From Myxococcota bacterium (GTDB lineage: Bacteria; Myxococcota_A; UBA9160; UBA6930), in contig OZ245002.1 in NCBI GenBank assembly GCA_965223415.1, positions 4,672,001 through 4,736,000 on the forward strand: a stretch of 64,000 nucleotides of DNA, given 5' to 3'. Below are positions 2,885 to 40,417 of this stretch, piece after piece. A model generated the notes under the pieces. The model saw only the letters and a program-made list of their open reading frames with translations, was not told the DNA's origin and did not search any database. Within the stretch, counting starts at the first letter, position 1. Every line of letters begins with the position of its first letter. A program made the translations under genes and the position numbers.

Positions 2885-3107
2885 GCCGCCGCTCCCGCGA
2901 CGCTCCTTGGGGGCGCGGGCCAGGCGCGGGAGCAACGCGCGTTTCGGGTGCGACCGTAGGCACGCCACCCGAGACATAGCGGTTTCGGCCGCGGAAGAAA
3001 TCGAAAATGAATTCGAGAATTCCTTTGCTAGGCGAAACGGGAACCCCCGCGGGGGTCTTGCGCCTTCGCACTGCGAGGCCGGACATGAAGACCGCCGCCG
3101 CCGCTAG

Positions 3108-32237: not shown

Positions 32238-33307
32238 GTGAGCTCCTGGGCCGGGGCCGCGGGTGTGGGCAGCGTCACGAGGAAGGCCGCTCCGTCGGAG
32301 GGGCTCTCCAGCTCGATGCGGCCGCCGTGGGCCTCGATGATCTTCTTGGTGAGCGCGAGGCCGAGGCCGGTGCCCTCGTCCTTCGACGAGTAGAAGGGGC
32401 TCCAGATGTCGGCGCGCTGCGTCTCGGGGATGCCGTGGCCGTGATCGCGCACGCGCAGCCAGGCCTCGGTGCCGGCCAGGTTCTCGCCGCACTCGATCTC
32501 GAGCACCGGCCGCTTCGCGTCGCGCATGGCGTCGAGGCCGTTGCCGATCAGGTTGATCACCACCCGTCGCAGCTTCTCGGGATCGCCCTGGATCTCGGGG
32601 GCGCCGTCGGTGCGTAGCCGTACCTCGACGCGCTCCCGGTCGATGCGCTCGCGGAAGGTCTCGAGCGCGCCTCGAACCACCTCACGCAGCTCGAGGGGCT
32701 CGGCCTGGAAGCCCTCCTCCCGGGCGAAGCGCAGCAGGTGGGAGATGCTCTTCTCCACCCGCTCCAGCTCCTCCAGGGCGACGTGGGCGTACTCGACGTT
32801 CTCATGGGAGCCCGGGTCCTCGCCCATCTGCTGGACCAGGCTCTTGGCCGCCGTGATGGGATTGCGGATCTCGTGGGCCACGCCCGCCGCCAGGTGCTCG
32901 ATGTGTCGCACGTGCTCGCCCTGGGTCTGGTGGCGGTGGGCGGCCACCTCGTGATCGAGCTCGCGCCGGACCTCGCGTTCGATCCAGCGCTCGCGGAGCT
33001 GGGGCTCGAGGACCTTCTTCAGATAGTCGCCCAGCAGGATGAAGCCGCCGATCAGGATCACCCAGCGCGCCGCCGCACCGGCGAAGACCCCGACGATGGC
33101 CGTGGCCAGGAGCAGGCCCATCAGGTCCTTCGCGAGCTTGGCCTTGGCCTTGCCCCGCCGGCGCCCACGGGCGATCGGGTCCGCCGGGTCGTACTCGGCG
33201 TCCACCGCGGGCTCGCGGTGCTCGTGCCCGTGCCGCCGGTTGCGCCGGCGTCTTCGCGCCGCCTGCTTCGTGGGGCCGCCTCCGCACGCATGGGCCCGGC
33301 CGCTCAC
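32234..33307 (-). CDS. Sensor histidine kinase (paralog 2)
   Basis: Two TM helices, AHEIRNP, DHGHG, GTGLGL; GTG start overlapping upstream stop. Confidence 0.88.
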
Positions 33308-34470
33308 GAGCGGCTCTCCTGGGGCTCGCGGATCTCCTTGGGGAAGGTCAGCACGAACTCGGTGCCGCTTCCCGGATCCGAGTGGGCCTCGATCGAGCCG
33401 CCGTGGGCGTCGACGACCTTCTTCGAGATGGCCAGGCCGAGGCCGGTGCCGGTCTCCTTCGAGGTGTAGAAGGGGCTGAAGATCCGGGTCAGCCGTTCGG
33501 GCTCCATGCCCGGCCCGTTGTCCTTCACGCGGATCCACACCTCCGTGCCCGCCAGGTTCTCGCCCGCCTGGACGTTCAGGGCCGGATGCTCGGTGTGGCC
33601 CTCGGCGAAGGCGTCGAGGGCGTTGCCGACCAGGTTGATGATCACCCGTCGCAGCTTCTCCGGATCCCCGCGCATCGCGCCGGCTCCCTGGACGTCCTGG
33701 TGGACGACCACGCCGAGGGTCTCCAGGCGATCGCGGAAGGTCTCGAGGGCCGACTCGACCACCTCGGCCATGTGCACCTCGCGCAGGTCCACGTCCTCGT
33801 CCCGCGCGAACTTCAGCAGGTGGGAGATGCTGCGCTCGACCCGCTCCAGCTCTTCCAGGGCGACGTTCGCGTACTCGACGTTCTCGCCCGCGGCCGGGTC
33901 CTCGCCCATCTGCTGCACCAGGCTCTTCGCCGCCGTGATCGGGTTGCGGATCTCGTGGGCGATGGACGCCGAGAGCTCCTCGACCCGCTTCGACTGCTGG
34001 CCCTCGAGCTGCACGCGCTCCCGGGTGACGTCGTGGCCGACGCGCTGGTCGACCTGGTCGTGGATCCAGCGCTTGCGCAGGTCCGGCACGACGAGAGCGA
34101 AGAAGTAGTGGAGCCCGAGGCCGAGGCCCCAGGGCACCGCGGTCCAGAACGCGGCTCGCGGGCCGGCGATCAGAAGCAGGAAGCCGTTCACGGCGAGGTA
34201 CGGAATCAGGTGCGCCATGAACCCGATGCGCGCGTTGGCCGCCTTGCGGGCCTCGCGGTAGGCCCGCTCGCGGGGGGAGACCCCGGCCTGCTGGGCCTGG
34301 GGGAGATCGGCCTCATCGTCGTCCGGGCCGTAGGTCTGGCTCCAGGTCCAGTCCTGCTGGTCCCGGTGCCTGGCTCGGCGGGCCTCCAAACGCTCCTCCT
34401 GGCGGCGCCTCTGCCGCTCGCGGGTAGTACGGGAGCGGGGCGAGCGAGGTTCGTCGCGCCGTCGGGACAT
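33304..34470 (-). CDS. Sensor histidine kinase with 2TM-like input (paralog 1)
   Basis: RIGFMAHLIPYLAVN..WGLGLGLH, AHEIRNP, DNGPG, GTGLGL. Confidence 0.88.
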   Translation of the reverse strand: MSRRRDEPRSPRSRTTRERQRRRQEERLEARRARHRDQQDWTWSQTYGPDDDEADLPQAQQAGVSPRERAYREARKAANARIGFMAHLIPYLAVNGFLLLIAGPRAAFWTAVPWGLGLGLHYFFALVVPDLRKRWIHDQVDQRVGHDVTRERVQLEGQQSKRVEELSASIAHEIRNPITAAKSLVQQMGEDPAAGENVEYANVALEELERVERSISHLLKFARDEDVDLREVHMAEVVESALETFRDRLETLGVVVHQDVQGAGAMRGDPEKLRRVIINLVGNALDAFAEGHTEHPALNVQAGENLAGTEVWIRVKDNGPGMEPERLTRIFSPFYTSKETGTGLGLAISKKVVDAHGGSIEAHSDPGSGTEFVLTFPKEIREPQESRS

Positions 34471-34540
34471 GCAGGGGCCTCCCAGGGCGGGCTCGGAGCC
34501 GGCGGGTTCGGTCCGCTCGAAGATCATGCCCGATCCGGAG

Positions 34541-34556
34541 AGCAAGGGCCGTGCCC
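34541..34556 (-). promoter_or_regulatory. Sigma54 -24/-12 promoter of the HK-HK-RR-pspA operon
   Basis: GGGCACGGCCCTTGCT (GG-N10-GC). Confidence 0.65.
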
Positions 34557-34694
34557 GTTTCGGGAACCCTGGAAATCCGGGCAGTTACGGATTGACTGTC
34601 GCCGGCCTGCTGCAGCCCGGGGGCGACAGTGCAGCGCTGGCGCTGCACCCTCCCCGGGGATTGCGCGGCCGGCCGTGGCAGGCAAAGTAGGGCC

Positions 34695-34958
34695 ATGACC
34701 GAATCCGACCCGACCCCCGAGGGTGACGAGACCCCGGAGTATGCACCGACTCCGTTCGACGGCCCGTACTTCGTGCCCGTGCTGCTCCTCGGCATGTCGC
34801 TCTGGTTCGCCTACGACGGCTTCTTGAACCCGGCCCGGCTCGATCCCAACGAGTCGCTCAGCAACTACCTGGCCTTCAACCAGTGGGGCGCGGTGATCCT
34901 GGCCGTGGCCGGGTTCGTTCTCGGGGTGCGGGCCTGGCGCCGGCGGCGCGACGCCTGA
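34695..34958 (+). CDS. Small two-TM membrane protein
   Basis: Two hydrophobic segments, basic tail. Confidence 0.65.
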   Translation: MTESDPTPEGDETPEYAPTPFDGPYFVPVLLLGMSLWFAYDGFLNPARLDPNESLSNYLAFNQWGAVILAVAGFVLGVRAWRRRRDA

Positions 34959-35681
34959 TCAGGAGGCCTCGCCGGGCGAGGGCACGACCGGCGGGACGCT
35001 GCCGGGCTCCGCCGGCGCGACCTGCACGCCGCCGGCCTCGGGGTTCTCGCTCTCGGGATTCACCAGGCCCGCCGACATCACCAGCTTGAAGGCCTGCTCG
35101 ACGCTCAGGTCGATGGGGGTCAAGTCGGCCTCGGGAACGAGGAGGTAGAAGCCCGAGGTGGGGTTCGGCGTCGTCGGCACGAACACGTTCACCAGGTTCG
35201 GCGGCAGCTCGGCGTGGCCCAGGCCGCGGACCGGCCCGGTCACGAAGGCCAGCGCGTAGAGGCCGGCGCGGGGATACTGGATGATCGCCACCCGGTTGAA
35301 GCTGGCCGTGGCGTCGCTGCTCCGGAAGATCGCCTCGAAGAGCTGCTTCACCGCGGCGTAGATGTTGCGGGCCACCGGCACGCGCGAGAGCAGCCGCTCC
35401 CACAGCCGCACCAGCTCCCAGCCGAACAGGTGTCGGGCGATGACGCCGAACAGCAGGATCACGATCAGCGTGAAGACCGCTCCGAGGAGCGGGATGGTCG
35501 GCGGATCCTGGACGCCCGGGAAGACCCAGCGCAGCACCGTGGGCAGGAGCAGGTTGTCGAGCCGTTGCACGATCCAGGCGATCGCCCAGACCGTGATCCC
35601 GATCGGCGCGAAGGCCAACACCCCCGCCACGAAGTAGCGGCCCAGCACCAGCCGGATGTTCTTCCAGAGCCTCGAGAGCAT
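34959..35681 (-). CDS. DUF502-family membrane protein
   Basis: RVPVARNIY, FVPTTPNPTSGF. Confidence 0.88.
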   Translation of the reverse strand: MLSRLWKNIRLVLGRYFVAGVLAFAPIGITVWAIAWIVQRLDNLLLPTVLRWVFPGVQDPPTIPLLGAVFTLIVILLFGVIARHLFGWELVRLWERLLSRVPVARNIYAAVKQLFEAIFRSSDATASFNRVAIIQYPRAGLYALAFVTGPVRGLGHAELPPNLVNVFVPTTPNPTSGFYLLVPEADLTPIDLSVEQAFKLVMSAGLVNPESENPEAGGVQVAPAEPGSVPPVVPSPGEAS

Positions 35682-35740
35682 CGCTCTAGACTGTATCGGT
35701 AGCGGGCCTCTCGTGCGTGAGGGCCCCGAGGAGGTCCCCC

Positions 35741-36133
35741 ATGGTCAAGCTGGTCTTCTGTCTACGCCGCCTGCCCGCGCTCTCCCGGGAGGAGTTCCAG
35801 CGCTACTGGCGGGAGAACCACGCCCCGCTGGTCGCCCGGCACGCGGAGGCCCTCGGGATCCTGCGCTACGTCCAGCTCCACTCGGAGCCCGACGAGCTGC
35901 CGGCGAACCAGCTGCTGCGGGCCAGTCGGAGCGCGCCCGAGCCCTACGACGGGATCGCGGAGCTCTGGTGGGAGAGCCAGGACGCCATGGCCGCGGCGAC
36001 GGCGAGCGAGGCCGGCCGCCAGGCGGGGGCCGTGCTCCTGGAAGACGAGCGGCGCTTCATCGATCTCGAGCGCTCGCCCCTGTGGCTGGCCCGGGAGCAC
36101 GAGGTGGTCCGGGCGGCGGAGTGGAGGGCCTGA
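35741..36133 (+). CDS. EthD-family protein
   Basis: LSREEFQRYWRENHAPL, YDGIAELWW, DERRFID; GAGGAGG RBS. Confidence 0.85.
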   Translation: MVKLVFCLRRLPALSREEFQRYWRENHAPLVARHAEALGILRYVQLHSEPDELPANQLLRASRSAPEPYDGIAELWWESQDAMAAATASEAGRQAGAVLLEDERRFIDLERSPLWLAREHEVVRAAEWRA

Positions 36134-36884
36134 GGGAAGCGGAGAGGCGCCGGCCGGCCAGCATGAGCAGCAGGCACCCGGCGAGGAGGGACAGCGCCGC
36201 CGGCTCCGGCACGAAGTGCAGCACCAGCGTGGACGCCGAGGCCGTGCGGCGGAGGAGGGAGCTACCGCCGGCTCCGAGGCTGACGGCCACGATCGACGGC
36301 GCGACGAGCGTCACGCTGCCGGCGCCACCGGCCGTGAGATCGTTCGCACCGGTGAACATCGCCGTCGACGGAATGGTCCGCGAGACGCTGAACAAGCCCG
36401 TCGCCGTCCAAGTGCGCGTCGTCCACGCGAGGTGCGTGTACGTCACCGTCACCGGCCCGACCAAGGGGTTGGCGGTCACGATCTGCGAGCTCACCGAGAC
36501 CCCGACCGAGAGCGGAACGGACCACATGACGAGCGGAATGCCTTGGGCGATAAAGGCAAAGGTGGCTCCGCCCATCCCGCGGTTCGCGACCCCGTCGACG
36601 AGCGTGATCGAGCCGGACAGCTGCTTGTCGACGGTAAACCGCGGCGGACCCGGCGCGCCGGGATCGAACAGTACGGCCCAACCCACTCCGGGCAGGATGG
36701 TCACCGCCGCGGTGTAGGACGTGCCCGTCGAGCTGCCCGACGCGAAGAAACGCGGATCGGCGGGCGTCACCGTGAACGTCGTCCCCTCGAGGCTGGTGTG
36801 CCAGCTCGCGGAGGTCAGCGTTCCGGCCCGGGCCGAGCCCGCCGTCCACACGAGGATCGCAGCGAGAATCAGGAGCTTCTGCAT
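36057..36884 (-). CDS. PEP-CTERM sorting-domain surface protein
   Basis: Signal peptide; T/S/G-rich body; FVPEP + hydrophobic helix + RR. Confidence 0.82.
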   Translation of the reverse strand: MQKLLILAAILVWTAGSARAGTLTSASWHTSLEGTTFTVTPADPRFFASGSSTGTSYTAAVTILPGVGWAVLFDPGAPGPPRFTVDKQLSGSITLVDGVANRGMGGATFAFIAQGIPLVMWSVPLSVGVSVSSQIVTANPLVGPVTVTYTHLAWTTRTWTATGLFSVSRTIPSTAMFTGANDLTAGGAGSVTLVAPSIVAVSLGAGGSSLLRRTASASTLVLHFVPEPAALSLLAGCLLLMLAGRRLSASLRPSTPPPGPPRAPGPATGASARDR

Positions 36885-36922
36885 CACACAACCCCACGCC
36901 GATCGCCTGGGACCAAGGGACA

Positions 36923-36937
36923 GCGTCGATGGTGCCA
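36923..36937 (-). promoter_or_regulatory. Possible sigma54 promoter of the PEP-CTERM gene
   Basis: TGGCAC-CATCG-ACGC (GG-N10-GC, weak -12). Confidence 0.4.
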
Positions 36938-37008
36938 CACGCCCGCTCCACGCACACGCCGCAGGAGCGCGGTCGAAGCCCCTGGCTGGCTCATCGCGCC
37001 AGGTCGCT

Positions 37009-37173
37009 CTAGAAGAGCGGCTCGTCGTCCGGCGCGTAGGCGGTGATCTCGCAGGAGAGCGAGATGACCTCGAAGCTGGGGGGCTCGTAGGCCTCCGTCC
37101 GCACGTTCTCGCGGTCCGGGCGGGTCTCGTGGTGTTCGCGATCCATGGCCGGCCAGGCTAGCAGATCGCTCAT
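37009..37173 (-). CDS. PqqA-like precursor peptide (54 aa; alternative start 37146, 45 aa)
   Basis: MSDLLAWPAMDREHHETRPDRENVRTEAYEPPSFEVISLSCEITAYAPDDEPLF; aromatic-xxP leader plus E-x3-Y; ATGA overlap with sulfotransferase stop. Confidence 0.7.
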   Translation of the reverse strand: MSDLLAWPAMDREHHETRPDRENVRTEAYEPPSFEVISLSCEITAYAPDDEPLF

Positions 37174-38183
37174 CGCAGGAGCACGTCGCAGGCGCCCCGC
37201 ACCCGTCGGACGAGCCGGCCCAAGGCGTTGCGCTGGATGTTGCGGCGGGCGGCGACGAGCAGGCGGCGCTCGAGGGCGTAGCGGGTGAGCTTGGCCCGGG
37301 AGGGGCCGGCGTCCCGCGGCTCGATCTCGGCCAGGGCCTTGCGCAGCTCCTCGCCCGGGTAGCCCCAGGTGGCCAGGTCCGGGTCGGTGAGGCGCGCGGC
37401 GATCTCCCGGCACTGGCCGAGCCGCGCAGGGTCGGCCGCCAGGGCCTCGGCCCATTTCGCCACGGAGGCGGTGGTCGGCCGGCTCTGCTGGGCCACGCCG
37501 GTGGGATCGCCGAGGCCCCGTGCGGAGGCGGCGCCCCCGCCGGCCGAGGCGCCGTAGTCGATCATGCCCGGCTCGTACTCGACGCCCAGGAACGCACACG
37601 CCGCCTCCATGTGCGTCTCGGGGGCCTGGACCAGCTCCTCGTAGCGCAGGTGGTGCAGGTCGACGGGCTGCTCGCGCAGGAAGCGCGCGATCGCCGGGAC
37701 GTAGCGCTCGAGGATCGGGTTGTGGGCGTGGGCGCTCTCGTGGTCGCCGTCGAAGAACGAGTCGACGACGCTCGACCACACCGCCATCGGGTGGCGGGTG
37801 AGGACGAGGTACTTCGCTTCCGGGTAGAGCCGGGTCAGGAAGTCGAGCACCAGCGAGTAGGCGGGCGTCTTGTCGAGGAAGAGGCGGCAGCCCGAGGGCT
37901 CGAGGGCCTTCGCGTACAGGTGGTTCGTGGCGGCGCGCAGGGCGTCCAGGTAGTCCGCCTCGCCGCCGGGCAGCAGGCCCACGAGCTCGCGCAGGCCGAG
38001 CTGGGTGATGGTGGGGTCGTAGGGCGCTTTCTCGACCTTGTCGTGGAAGCCCAGGTGGGCCAGCGGCGGCATCAGGTGCGGCTCCACCGGGGCGAAGATG
38101 GCCGGGTGGGCGCCCAGCATGCGCGTCGTCAGGGTGGTGCCCCCGCGCGGCGGGCCGATCAGAAAGACGAGTCGGTCTTGCAT
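37170..38183 (-). CDS. PAPS-dependent sulfotransferase (Sulfotransfer_3-like)
   Basis: IGPPRGGTTL (5'-PSB), DKTP, LTRHP..S (3'-PB), LRYEELV. Confidence 0.9.
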   Translation of the reverse strand: MQDRLVFLIGPPRGGTTLTTRMLGAHPAIFAPVEPHLMPPLAHLGFHDKVEKAPYDPTITQLGLRELVGLLPGGEADYLDALRAATNHLYAKALEPSGCRLFLDKTPAYSLVLDFLTRLYPEAKYLVLTRHPMAVWSSVVDSFFDGDHESAHAHNPILERYVPAIARFLREQPVDLHHLRYEELVQAPETHMEAACAFLGVEYEPGMIDYGASAGGGAASARGLGDPTGVAQQSRPTTASVAKWAEALAADPARLGQCREIAARLTDPDLATWGYPGEELRKALAEIEPRDAGPSRAKLTRYALERRLLVAARRNIQRNALGRLVRRVRGACDVLLR

Positions 38184-38273
38184 GGAGTCCTTCCCATCGG
38201 TCGCGAGCCGACCGGGCCTTGAGAGTAGGCAGGGTCCGCGCTCGTGGCCGATGCCCGGGGCGGCCCGGCCGCG

Positions 38274-39470
38274 TCAGACCTCGAAGCCGTTCTCGGCGGC
38301 TGTCTGCTGGAGCCAGGTGGCGGAGCGGCGCGGGGTGCGGGCGTCGGTCTCCGGGTCCAGCGCGACGAGGCCCAGGCCCCGGGGCGGGGCGGTGGGCGTG
38401 TCGCGGATGTCGAGCAGGTGGGGGGCGTGGTAGGCGCGTAGCTCGACACCCCGGGCGACGGCCTCGGCGGCGCCTTCCAGCTCGCCGCGAAGGCGGAGCA
38501 GGCGCTCCTCGTCCGGCAGGGCGCCATCGGGCTCCGGCTCCGGATCGTCCAGGCAGGGGAGGCCCACCAGCTCGAGGGGTGGGCAATCGGGTCCTGCGAA
38601 GCGCTCCTGGAGCAGCCGGCAGACCGTCTCGGGCCAGCGGCTCGCGTCGAAGGCGGCCGGCAGCGCCTCGGCCTCGTGGCCGAGGCGGGGATCGTCGCGC
38701 GCGCGGATGCGCACCGGAGGAGCCAGCCGAACCGAGAGGAAGTCCGGGGCGCCGAGGCAGCGCTCGCCGTCCCCGTCGCGGGCCTCCAGCTCGGGCACCG
38801 GGCGGCCCTCGGCGTCTGCGTAGGGCGGCGGGTAGCCGCGGCCCTGGGCCGGGCCCAGGAAGAGCTCGGCGTGGCCGGCCCGCCACAGGCGGAAGGCCTC
38901 CTCGTCGTCGCTCCCGTCGCCCTCGGGCTCGGCGGGGGCGGCGACGAGGCCAGCGCCTAGGGCCAGGCCGTCGCGCTCGGCGCGCAGGGCCTCGGCGCCT
39001 GCCGCCTGGGCCAGGTTCGCCACGTGGACCCCGCGCAGGAAGGCGCGGCGCTCGGGCAGCGCCTCGCGCAGAAAGAGGGATGGGGCGTCGAGGAGGAGCC
39101 AGGCGTCGACCCGGTCCGCCAGCGCTCGTCCCAGGGCCGATGCGTAGTCGGCGAAGCGTCCCGCCGTATCGCGGTCGGCCCAGCCGCCGCGCCTCGCCAG
39201 GGCGTCCGGCAGCTCGCCCTGGTGCAGCACGGGGAGCGGCCGGATGCCGGCGGCGAGGAGCCCGTCCACCAGGGTGCGGTAGGCATCGAGGACGTCCGGT
39301 CGGGCCGGTCCGCGGCCCTCGGGCTGGACCCGCGGCCAGGGGACGCCGAAGCGGTAGCTCGAGAGCCCGAGCCGGCCGAGCAGCTCGACGTCCTGGGTGG
39401 CGGCTCCCTGGCCGGTGGCGGCGCTGGCGGCTCCCCAGAGGAAGCCCTCCGGGAAGCGAAGGCGAGACAT
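38274..39470 (-). CDS. GH1 beta-glucosidase-like protein lacking both catalytic glutamates
   Basis: FPEGFLWGAASAA, YRFGVPWPRVQP, GGW; NEP site reads DAP and ENG site reads GLP. Confidence 0.75.
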   Translation of the reverse strand: MSRLRFPEGFLWGAASAATGQGAATQDVELLGRLGLSSYRFGVPWPRVQPEGRGPARPDVLDAYRTLVDGLLAAGIRPLPVLHQGELPDALARRGGWADRDTAGRFADYASALGRALADRVDAWLLLDAPSLFLREALPERRAFLRGVHVANLAQAAGAEALRAERDGLALGAGLVAAPAEPEGDGSDDEEAFRLWRAGHAELFLGPAQGRGYPPPYADAEGRPVPELEARDGDGERCLGAPDFLSVRLAPPVRIRARDDPRLGHEAEALPAAFDASRWPETVCRLLQERFAGPDCPPLELVGLPCLDDPEPEPDGALPDEERLLRLRGELEGAAEAVARGVELRAYHAPHLLDIRDTPTAPPRGLGLVALDPETDARTPRRSATWLQQTAAENGFEV

Positions 39471-39568
39471 GCGGCGGGATCTTCTCGGACCCGCGGCCCC
39501 CGGCGCAAGGCTGCCGGCCTCCGGCGCAAGCCGGCCCTCGGGGCCGCCGATGGTAGGTTCCAGTCGCC

Positions 39569-40417
39569 ATGAACGAGCAGGTCGCCCAGCCCTCTCCCGC
39601 ACCGTCCCGCGAGTGGCTTCTCGCCGTGGCGCTGCTGGTGGTCTTCGCGCCGGCGATCGCGGGCATGGCGGAGCAGTGGCGCACCTTCGACTACCTGTCC
39701 CACGGGTTCCTCGTCCCGGTGGTCTCGCTGTGGGCCTTCCTGCGCGAGCGGCCCTTCCGGGAGCGCGTGGCCGCGGCCGCCGATGGTCGCGGCGCGGTGC
39801 TCATCGGCGTGGCGCTGCTCACCTACCTGGCGGGGCTCGCGGCCAGCGTGGTCTCCCTCCAGGGCGTGGCCCTGGTGGCGGCCGTGGCGGGCGCGGCCTG
39901 GCTGCTGCGGGGCACGGCGTGGCTTCGGGCAGCCTCGTTCCCGATCGCGTTCCTCCTGTTCATGGTGCCGCCGCCCCAGGGCTGGATCACGCCGTTGATC
40001 GTGCAGCTCCAGCTCTTCGTGTCCGTGGTGGCCCTGACCATCGTGCGCGGCCTCGGCCTCGAGGTGGTGCGGGACGGGAACGTGCTCACCCTGGCGAGCG
40101 GGGAGTCGCTCTTCGTGGCCGAGGCCTGCAGCGGGGTCACGTCGGTCATCACGCTGACCCCGCTCGCGGTGGTGCTCGGCTACTACGGCCTGCGCCGGCT
40201 TGGATCGCGGGTCGCGCTGGTCGTGGCGGTCATCCCCCTGGCCATGCTCGGCAACCTGACCCGGGTGGTGGCGACGGTGTGGCTCGCAGATGCGGAGAGC
40301 GTGGCCTTCGCGACCGAGGGCCCGCTCCACGACGTGCTGGGCCTGAGCACCTACCTGGTCGCCTGCCTCGGCATGCTCGGGGTCGCCGCGCTCCTGCGCC
40401 GCTGGGAAGAAGCCTGA
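39569..40417 (+). CDS. Exosortase
   Basis: YLSHGFLVP, VAEACSG (Cys), GNLTR (Arg), LH (His); multi-TM. Confidence 0.9.
   Translation: MNEQVAQPSPAPSREWLLAVALLVVFAPAIAGMAEQWRTFDYLSHGFLVPVVSLWAFLRERPFRERVAAAADGRGAVLIGVALLTYLAGLAASVVSLQGVALVAAVAGAAWLLRGTAWLRAASFPIAFLLFMVPPPQGWITPLIVQLQLFVSVVALTIVRGLGLEVVRDGNVLTLASGESLFVAEACSGVTSVITLTPLAVVLGYYGLRRLGSRVALVVAVIPLAMLGNLTRVVATVWLADAESVAFATEGPLHDVLGLSTYLVACLGMLGVAALLRRWEEA

Follow-up and report, generated by a model that had tools for sequence, protein, structure and literature searches.

The stretch of DNA analysed here, called the window, comprises 64,000 nucleotides (G000:C1:4672001-4736000) of the genome of a Myxococcota bacterium (G000), which is available as a single contig of 5.83 Mb with 71% GC. 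On the reverse strand of the window, next to a sulfotransferase (ST) gene, lies a small gene for a peptide with the Glu-X3-Tyr core of PqqA, the precursor of pyrroloquinoline quinone (PQQ). Here, we argue that this peptide is very probably the PqqA of the organism, that it represents a divergent subfamily and that it is encoded 1.96 Mb away from the pqqB-pqqC/D-pqqE genes. Within the sampled genomes, the subfamily is confined to a single order of uncultured Myxococcota. An initial annotation of this DNA had placed two readings side by side, a PqqA-like peptide that is sulfated or regulated by sulfation, and an orphan pqqA beside an unrelated enzyme. The latter is borne out by the co-occurrence of the peptide with pqqC, by a pqq operon that is devoid of pqqA, by orthologues that score at the cut-off of the PqqA model, and by homologues that lie directly upstream of pqqB.

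The pqq operon of the genome and its probable precursor

The pqqB, pqqC, pqqD and pqqE genes are found together at G000:C1:2742861-2745750 (L007:6862-9751). Three of them score over the cut-offs of their models (pqqB 331 bits against 245, pqqC 249.5 against 240, pqqE 456-458 against 381), and pqqD, at 44.4 bits, stays just under its cut-off of 46; pqqC and pqqD occupy one uninterrupted frame and form a PqqC/D fusion. Since the stop codon of ileS overlaps the start of pqqB, there is no room for a pqqA at this place, and the operon is without a pqqA of its own. In 30 relatives' loci, too, the 1.5 kb on either side of pqqC revealed no PqqA-like open reading frame (ORF). That the genome makes use of PQQ is suggested by a GSDH (310 bits) and by two matches to PQQ alcohol dehydrogenase that exceed the cut-off, at 674.6 and 587.1 bits. 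As the initial annotation had stated, the window itself holds no pqq gene, and none of the 24 matches of the genome to Radical_SAM (PF04055) falls inside it.

The core of PqqA is defined as Glu-X-X-X-Tyr in a short peptide (PMC2294125). The peptide of the window is the best match of the whole genome to TIGR02107, the NCBIfam model of PqqA (cut-off 20 bits), with 12.7 bits and an E-value of 1.42; the second-best match falls within a frame of 552 codons. In a six-frame translation of the genome, the peptide is unique in matching the pattern P-x9-E[VILM][TSN]xY, and also in having E[VILM]TxY at most 15 residues from a stop.

Distribution of the peptide and of pqqC

The order-wide set consists of G000 and 60 relatives of the same order, and all phyletic counts refer to these 61 genomes; being raw counts on related genomes, the co-occurrence tables are descriptive. 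Orthologues of the peptide were accepted at E≤4.4e-5, and a 38th match (E 0.06, with an internal stop) was left out. The peptide is present in 37 genomes and pqqC is over cut-off in 34. Both are found in 32 genomes and neither in 22; the peptide stands alone in five (G001, G013, G019, G030 and G037, 73-93% complete) and pqqC in two (G011 and G018, 85% and 89% complete). Inside the genera g1 and g2, the presence of the peptide and that of pqqC switch together.

One of the five peptide-only genomes, G001, belongs to a congener. Its assembly is interrupted precisely at the peptide gene, two contigs, C200 and C344 (L069, L070), both ending in the same 27 codons. The genome is 93% complete and yielded no pqqC; its pqqA may be a relic, or a contig may be missing.

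Some orthologues resemble PqqA more closely than the peptide of the window does. Over the 61 genomes, only two matches to TIGR02107 were counted as over cut-off, and both are orthologues of the peptide: one scores 20.9 bits, the other 19.7 bits, which was counted because it reaches 20 together with its neighbours in the frame. At E≤10, TIGR02107 matches 11 of 36 orthologues (best E 2e-4), and the Pfam PqqA model (PF08042) matches 5 of 36 (best E 0.004). Of 1248 relatives in the database, the best 120 include many with the JGI name 'coenzyme PQQ precursor peptide PqqA', and the named relative that comes from NCBI is a 'hypothetical protein' of Myxococcota.

A profile of the family was searched against a wider set of 201 Myxococcota genomes. 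Strong matches came only from the order of the window, in 18 genomes, 17 of which have pqqC. Only two matches lie outside the order (G229, E 7.6e-5; G100, E 3.4e-4), and both are small ORFs on the contig of pqqC, directly upstream of pqqB-pqqC-(D)-E. These peptides at the pqqA position read ...WEPPSFREILMNAEIGAYQADD... and MNWQTPAFEEINMSAEIGAYQGDE..., respectively. The peptide of the window is thus homologous to canonically placed pqqA, although its own gene, in this order, is found elsewhere. Two further operons outside the order (G199 and G082) have ordinary PqqA-like ORFs in the same upstream position.

Within the order, none of pqqB, pqqC/D or pqqE lies within 6 kb of the peptide in any of 80 species-level loci. 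These loci were taken from public Myxococcota metagenome-assembled genomes and overlap with the second neighbourhood set, 37 relatives' loci, that is used below. In the genus g3 (G007; L046:8964-9083), the peptide has left the block of ST and DUF502 genes described below and follows a hexapeptide-repeat transferase; a PQQ-dependent dehydrogenase (PF01011, 294 bits; L046:10908-12716) lies 1.8 kb away, and pqqC is at a distance of 183 kb.

A second type of pqq operon, with a pqqC of ~346-348 bits, was seen in G150, which belongs to family f11 of the same order, and also in G136 and G145; in G047 it is an additional copy. In G150 a different PqqA-like ORF (...WRKPVVEETACGCEINCY...) lies between pqqC/D and pqqE (L220:~2920-3090), and the family peptide is absent.

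Sequence and reading frame of the peptide

Translation of 37173-37009 on the reverse strand gives a 54-aa peptide, MSDLLAWPAMDREHHETRPDRENVRTEAYEPPSFEVISLSCEITAYAPDDEPLF, with the C-terminal end ...CEITAYAPDDEPLF. The initial annotation had noticed it in the tail of a spurious long ORF, and it is indeed there: the ORF has 891 codons (37009-39684, reverse strand), is rich in Arg, Pro and Gly, ends in the peptide, and overlaps the ST gene and a GH1 glycosidase gene in other frames. An ORF of this kind is a typical artefact of high-GC DNA, which could lead gene-calling programs astray and mask the peptide.

The family was aligned from 36 orthologues, excluding one that lacks an ATG start and another that was read as 77 aa. 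In what follows, Glu42, Tyr46, Cys41 and Y29 are numbered on the 54-aa form, and E33, Y37 and Cys32 on a 45-aa form that starts at the second ATG. The N-terminus of the family is variable and the C-terminus is nearly fixed, [Y/W]ExPxFEVISLxCEI[T/S]AYAPD(D/G)xPLF. In the 45-aa numbering, the positions without any variation are M1, P23, L30, C32, E33, Y37, P43 and L44, while 90% or more of the orthologues share A38, P39, D40 and F45; the C-terminal ~27 residues are conserved in all 37 genomes that have the peptide. Both tyrosines to which the initial annotation drew attention are present; the first of them, Y29, is not conserved: 16 of the orthologues have Y, 19 have W and one has H. Compared with G000, 17 orthologues of equal core length have 80, 50 and 127 differences at codon positions 1, 2 and 3, and the congener G001 differs from G000 by five synonymous and no non-synonymous codon changes in the peptide. 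Conservation of this degree exceeds chance and indicates that the peptide is a real gene.

As had been described, the ATG of the 54-aa form (37173-37171) overlaps the TGA of the ST gene (37172-37170) as ATGA. We favour the 45-aa form as the likelier product, because orthologues start with MD.. in 10 of 36 cases (with MDRE in one) and because the gap between the ST and the start of the peptide in relatives is ~37-160 nt. The ATGA overlap is thus probably incidental, and gaps of that size imply that translational coupling is not general. The initial annotation also suggested that a TAGCCT hexamer 8 nt ahead of the second ATG (37146) would allow independent expression. The hexamer is there (37160-37155); as a promoter it is without support, since a scan of 36800-38400 for sigma-70-like promoters found no such site. 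The sole terminator-like site in the same region falls inside the ST gene and none is predicted between the ST and the peptide. The spacing of the two genes and this lack of a predicted terminator suggest that they are probably co-transcribed.

Linkage between the peptide and the sulfotransferase

Orthologues of the ST, defined by E≤1e-116 with 55-84% identity and one per genome, are found in 36 of the 61 genomes. The ST and the peptide occur together in 24 genomes, the ST alone in 12, the peptide alone in 13, and neither in 12. No pqqC over cut-off was found in the 12 genomes with the ST alone, and 11 of the 13 with the peptide alone have one. From this phyletic pattern, neither the peptide nor the ST needs the other to persist.

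The ST lies directly upstream of the peptide in 16 of the 37 loci and one gene away, with an M50-CBS gene in between, in seven, so that the two are adjacent in 23 of 37. It is missing from the available stretch in the other 14 loci. Of these, three are short or lie at the end of a contig; in eight contiguous loci the peptide is in place with no ST. In the species-level set, the ST is found within 6 kb in 51 of 80 loci. Conversely, at ten loci that have the ST alone, the block is undisturbed, with no peptide after the ST; in these genomes the order (GH1/exosortase)-ST-DUF502 is kept, and at six such loci with DUF502 inside the locus, the gap between ST and DUF502 is 38-156 nt. A sensitive tblastn search (E≤10, word size 2) for a remnant of the peptide in the ten loci returned noise-level matches only.

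The adjacency of the ST and the peptide belongs to a longer conserved order, QueG-(exosortase)-(GH1)-ST-(M50 protease)-peptide-DUF502-(small ORF)-kinase. As the whole block is syntenic, the adjacency needs no functional cause, and on comparative grounds it belongs to a set of unrelated housekeeping genes that has been passed on vertically as a block. The initial annotation had named homologues found only beside pqqBCDE or at random loci as speaking against a link to sulfation; taken literally, this is not the distribution seen, as adjacency to the ST is common, and that adjacency is explained by synteny. Across the genomes compared, the ST behaves as a mere neighbour of the peptide and not as its partner. 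No exporter or peptidase of the RaxA/RaxB type is found among the neighbours within ~4 kb.

The sulfotransferase and other neighbouring genes

The features discussed here are collected in Table 1. The ST is genuine, as the initial annotation had it, with 108.7 bits against a cut-off of 27 for Pfam Sulfotransfer_3 (E 6.5e-31, residues 6-205). Its N-terminal G-P-P-R-G-G-T-T is at the position expected of what we take to be the 5'-phosphosulfate-binding loop for 3'-phosphoadenosine 5'-phosphosulfate (PAPS). The best similarity among NCBIfam models is to the N-terminal part of NoeE (86.9 bits, far under cut-off). The nearest solved relatives are the STs of CurM (E 2e-18) and OLS (E 2.7e-17), followed by the tyrosylprotein sulfotransferases TPST1/2 (E ~1e-8). 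An argument from the Pfam family, which also holds the TPSTs, to the acceptor of the ST was rejected because the family is too broad. Nor can the acceptor be read from homology, since the similarity to CurM, OLS and TPST amounts to only 33-70 bits. The GH1, exosortase and PEP-CTERM neighbours hint at a glycan or envelope substrate.

Table 1. Features of the window around the pqqA candidate, and one gene seen in relatives
Feature	Position	Strand	Remarks
PqqA-like peptide, longest form (54 aa + stop)	37009..37173	-	best TIGR02107 match of the genome; kept in 37/61 genomes
Likelier 45-aa form, MDREHH...PLF, from the second ATG	37009..37146	-	probable start 23 nt past the ST stop
E-I-T-A-Y core (Glu42, Tyr46), Glu-X3-Tyr pair	37036..37050	-	both residues invariant in 36/36 orthologues
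Cys41, directly before Glu42	37051-37053	-	invariant in 36 orthologues
C-terminal tail APDDEPLF	37012-37035	-	A-P-D...P-L-F conserved across 36 orthologues
Sulfotransferase (ST), 337 aa	37170..38183	-	Pfam Sulfotransfer_3 (PF13469)
GH1 glycosidase, divergent	38274..39602	-	Pfam Glyco_hydro_1, E 1.4e-37; syntenic in relatives
Exosortase (EpsH, E 1.2e-50)	39569-40417	+	2.4 kb upstream of the peptide
QueG	beyond the exosortase in gene order		part of the conserved block
PEP-CTERM paralogue	36057-36887	-	between the peptide and DUF502 here
EthD	35717-36133	+	between the peptide and DUF502 here
DUF502 membrane protein	34959..35681	-	Pfam DUF502, E 1.8e-30; directly downstream of the peptide in most relatives
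Small ORF	34629-34958	+	
Histidine kinase	33304-34545	-	
M50-CBS gene	L211:4778-5935	+	equivalents in L044, L054, L056, L058, L059, L062-L064, L066, L067

The insertion of EthD and PEP-CTERM genes between pqqA and DUF502 is seen in this genome only, and the PEP-CTERM protein has at least nine paralogous regions elsewhere in it.

In some relatives (10 of the 80 species-level loci), a gene of ~370 aa that combines Peptidase_M50 and CBS lies directly upstream of the peptide, either between the ST and pqqA or in place of the ST. Its product could be a lineage-specific protease that processes PqqA, or the gene could be just a syntenic insert. As a general PqqA-processing protease it was ruled out: G000 has no homologue at E≤1e-6, and the gene cannot therefore be a general part of the pathway.

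Proposed route to PQQ

If the peptide is the PqqA of this organism, its 45-aa (or 54-aa) form would be translated, probably from the ST transcript, and the PqqD part of the fused PqqC/D protein would bind the leader region [Y/W]-E-x-P-x-F. PqqE would make the cross-link between Glu42 and Tyr46, a peptidase would cut out the Glu-Tyr pair, and PqqB and PqqC would complete PQQ, which would serve the quinoprotein dehydrogenases of the genome. The ST, a neighbour by descent, would have no part in this route. We infer every one of these biochemical steps from the established PQQ pathway. One may further speculate that the Cys before the Glu and the APD...PLF tail help PqqD/E or the releasing peptidase to recognise the peptide.

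Several observations weigh against identifying the peptide as PqqA. It scores 12.1-12.7 bits against the TIGR02107 cut-off (E 0.09-0.14 per protein, 1.42 genome-wide), and Pfam PqqA (PF08042) does not match the peptide of the window. Its length of 45-54 aa exceeds that of characterised PqqAs, for which PMC2294125 gives 23-39 aa. The invariant Cys and the A-P-D...P-L-F tail are not shared by the out-of-order peptides seen at the pqqA position. In 7 of the 61 genomes, including the 93%-complete congener in which no pqqC was found, the peptide and pqqC are discordant. Finally, an ST that is directly upstream in 16 of 37 loci and one gene off in seven would fit a functional tie, for which it is in itself no evidence.

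Alternative explanations

We consider it very unlikely that the peptide is a sulfated ribosomally synthesised and post-translationally modified peptide (RiPP), in which the ST would sulfate a Tyr (or Ser/Thr) to give a sulfated product or to gate the entry of the precursor into PQQ synthesis. Such a role could be read from the ATGA overlap or the 23-nt spacing with no terminator predicted in between, from the frequent adjacency (within one gene in 23 of 37 loci, within 6 kb in 51 of 80), from a Pfam family shared with the TPSTs (E ~1e-8), and from the acidic conserved tail after the Tyr of the peptide. Yet 12 of 61 genomes keep the ST without the peptide, with the block unchanged in ten ST-only loci, and 13 keep the peptide without the ST, 11 of them with pqqC; the run of genes from QueG through exosortase, GH1, ST, pqqA and DUF502 to the kinase is syntenic. 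Substitutions of the first Tyr (19 W and 1 H among 36 orthologues) leave that of PQQ as the sole invariant one; it would be consumed in the cofactor, and its O-sulfation would presumably prevent the later hydroxylation. The neighbours include no RaxA/RaxB-type exporter or peptidase, and the closest solved relatives of the ST are the polyketide synthase-associated CurM and OLS (E 2e-18), not TPST. The proposal of the initial annotation that the peptide is sulfated, or regulated by sulfation, thus falls on phyletic uncoupling, on peptide-free ST loci, on the missing Rax exporter and on the unconserved non-core Tyr. A link to sulfation finds no comparative support and seems to us quite improbable. 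We would give similarly little credit to a narrower idea, that where both genes are kept the ST acts on the tail or Tyr of PqqA, as a checkpoint of PQQ synthesis or for a second sulfated product, or that Cys-Glu and the tail mark an extra step.

We also consider it very unlikely that the peptide is a PqqA-like precursor of a product other than PQQ, with the Cys and the APD...PLF tail marking another or an extra modification by PqqE or by another enzyme. The invariance of Cys32, Pro43 and Leu44 and the conservation of A38, P39, D40 and F45 in at least 90% of 36 orthologues would suit such a product, as would a score under the PqqA cut-off and the distance of the gene from pqqB-E, which exceeds 6 kb in all 80 loci. 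This explanation has to contend with a genome that holds pqqB, C, D and E and PQQ-dependent enzymes and no other pqqA candidate, with a presence that tracks pqqC, the last PQQ-specific enzyme, with out-of-order homologues in the canonical pqqA position, and with the lack of a second maturase linked to the peptide in any context seen. It is hardly conceivable that the peptide is no gene at all and that its frame, the last part of an artefactual ORF in high-GC DNA, is open by chance. The frame is open over 891 codons in 71% GC DNA, and neither a Shine-Dalgarno-like sequence nor a promoter was found; this notion is nevertheless refuted by the pattern of conservation: in 37 of 61 genomes the N-terminus varies while the last 27 residues hardly change, synonymous third-position changes are in excess, and 1248 database relatives are called as proteins.

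Relation to known systems and implications

Like the PqqAs described by TIGR02107 and PF08042, the peptide is small and has the Glu-X3-Tyr core near its C-terminus, with a [W/Y]-x-x-P-x-[F/V] segment ahead of the core at the same spacing. The family tracks pqqC (both in 32 genomes, 7 of 61 discordant), and in sister lineages its homologues immediately precede pqqB. It differs from them in its length (45-54 aa against 23-39 aa), in the score of the window peptide (12-13 bits against the cut-off of 20), in the invariant Cys before the Glu and the A-P-D-(D/G)-x-P-L-F tail, and in the place of its gene, 1.96 Mb from pqqB-E in the window's genome and at a fixed syntenic position upstream of DUF502.

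In Methylosinus trichosporium OB3b, where pqqBCDE includes a PqqC/D fusion, a remote pqqA that escaped annotation has been reported (PMC3615186); expression of pqqA well above that of pqqB-E, as is typical, is also reported for Methylosinus. The two organisms share the absence of an adjacent pqqA, the fusion, and a precursor at another locus that was missed by automatic annotation; the PqqA of OB3b is close to that of Methylobacterium, with a similarity of 96% reported in that paper, whereas the family of the window is divergent and belongs to Myxococcota. In Methylophilaceae, 3-12 dispersed copies of pqqA per single pqqBCDE are described in PMC4109929.

The RaxX/RaxST pair of Xanthomonas resembles the locus in having a short precursor gene that adjoins an ST of the same broad superfamily, and differs in the RaxA/RaxB-type secretion and processing genes, as given in PMC6637879 and bioRxiv 10.1101/442517, which the locus of the window does not have. 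Unlike RaxX and RaxST, moreover, the precursor and the ST of the window are not co-inherited, the peptide tracks PQQ genes instead, and its family has no conserved sulfatable Tyr outside the Glu-X3-Tyr core. The STs of CurM and OLS (PDB 4gbm, 4gox) and TPST1/2 (e.g. 3ap1, 5wri) belong to the same Sulfotransfer_3 fold family as the ST of the window, which differs from them in being free-standing and in lying next to a GH1 glycosidase and an exosortase.

In the library of papers searched, no work on PqqA in Myxococcota turned up, and with it no published account of the present subfamily. The divergent family is new, and a remote, unannotated pqqA was already known from Methylosinus; the finding is of value for annotation and of low surprise, and it opens no long-standing question. 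We would like to point out that a tight and widespread gene pair, even one with an ATGA overlap, can be pure synteny, and that it was phyletic uncoupling that told the readings apart. Because their PqqA is divergent, scores under the NCBI cut-off and is encoded elsewhere, the complete pqqB-E operons of this order look as if they had no precursor, and metabolic reconstructions would wrongly call PQQ synthesis incomplete in these organisms. The C-terminal consensus given above could seed an improved model of PqqA.

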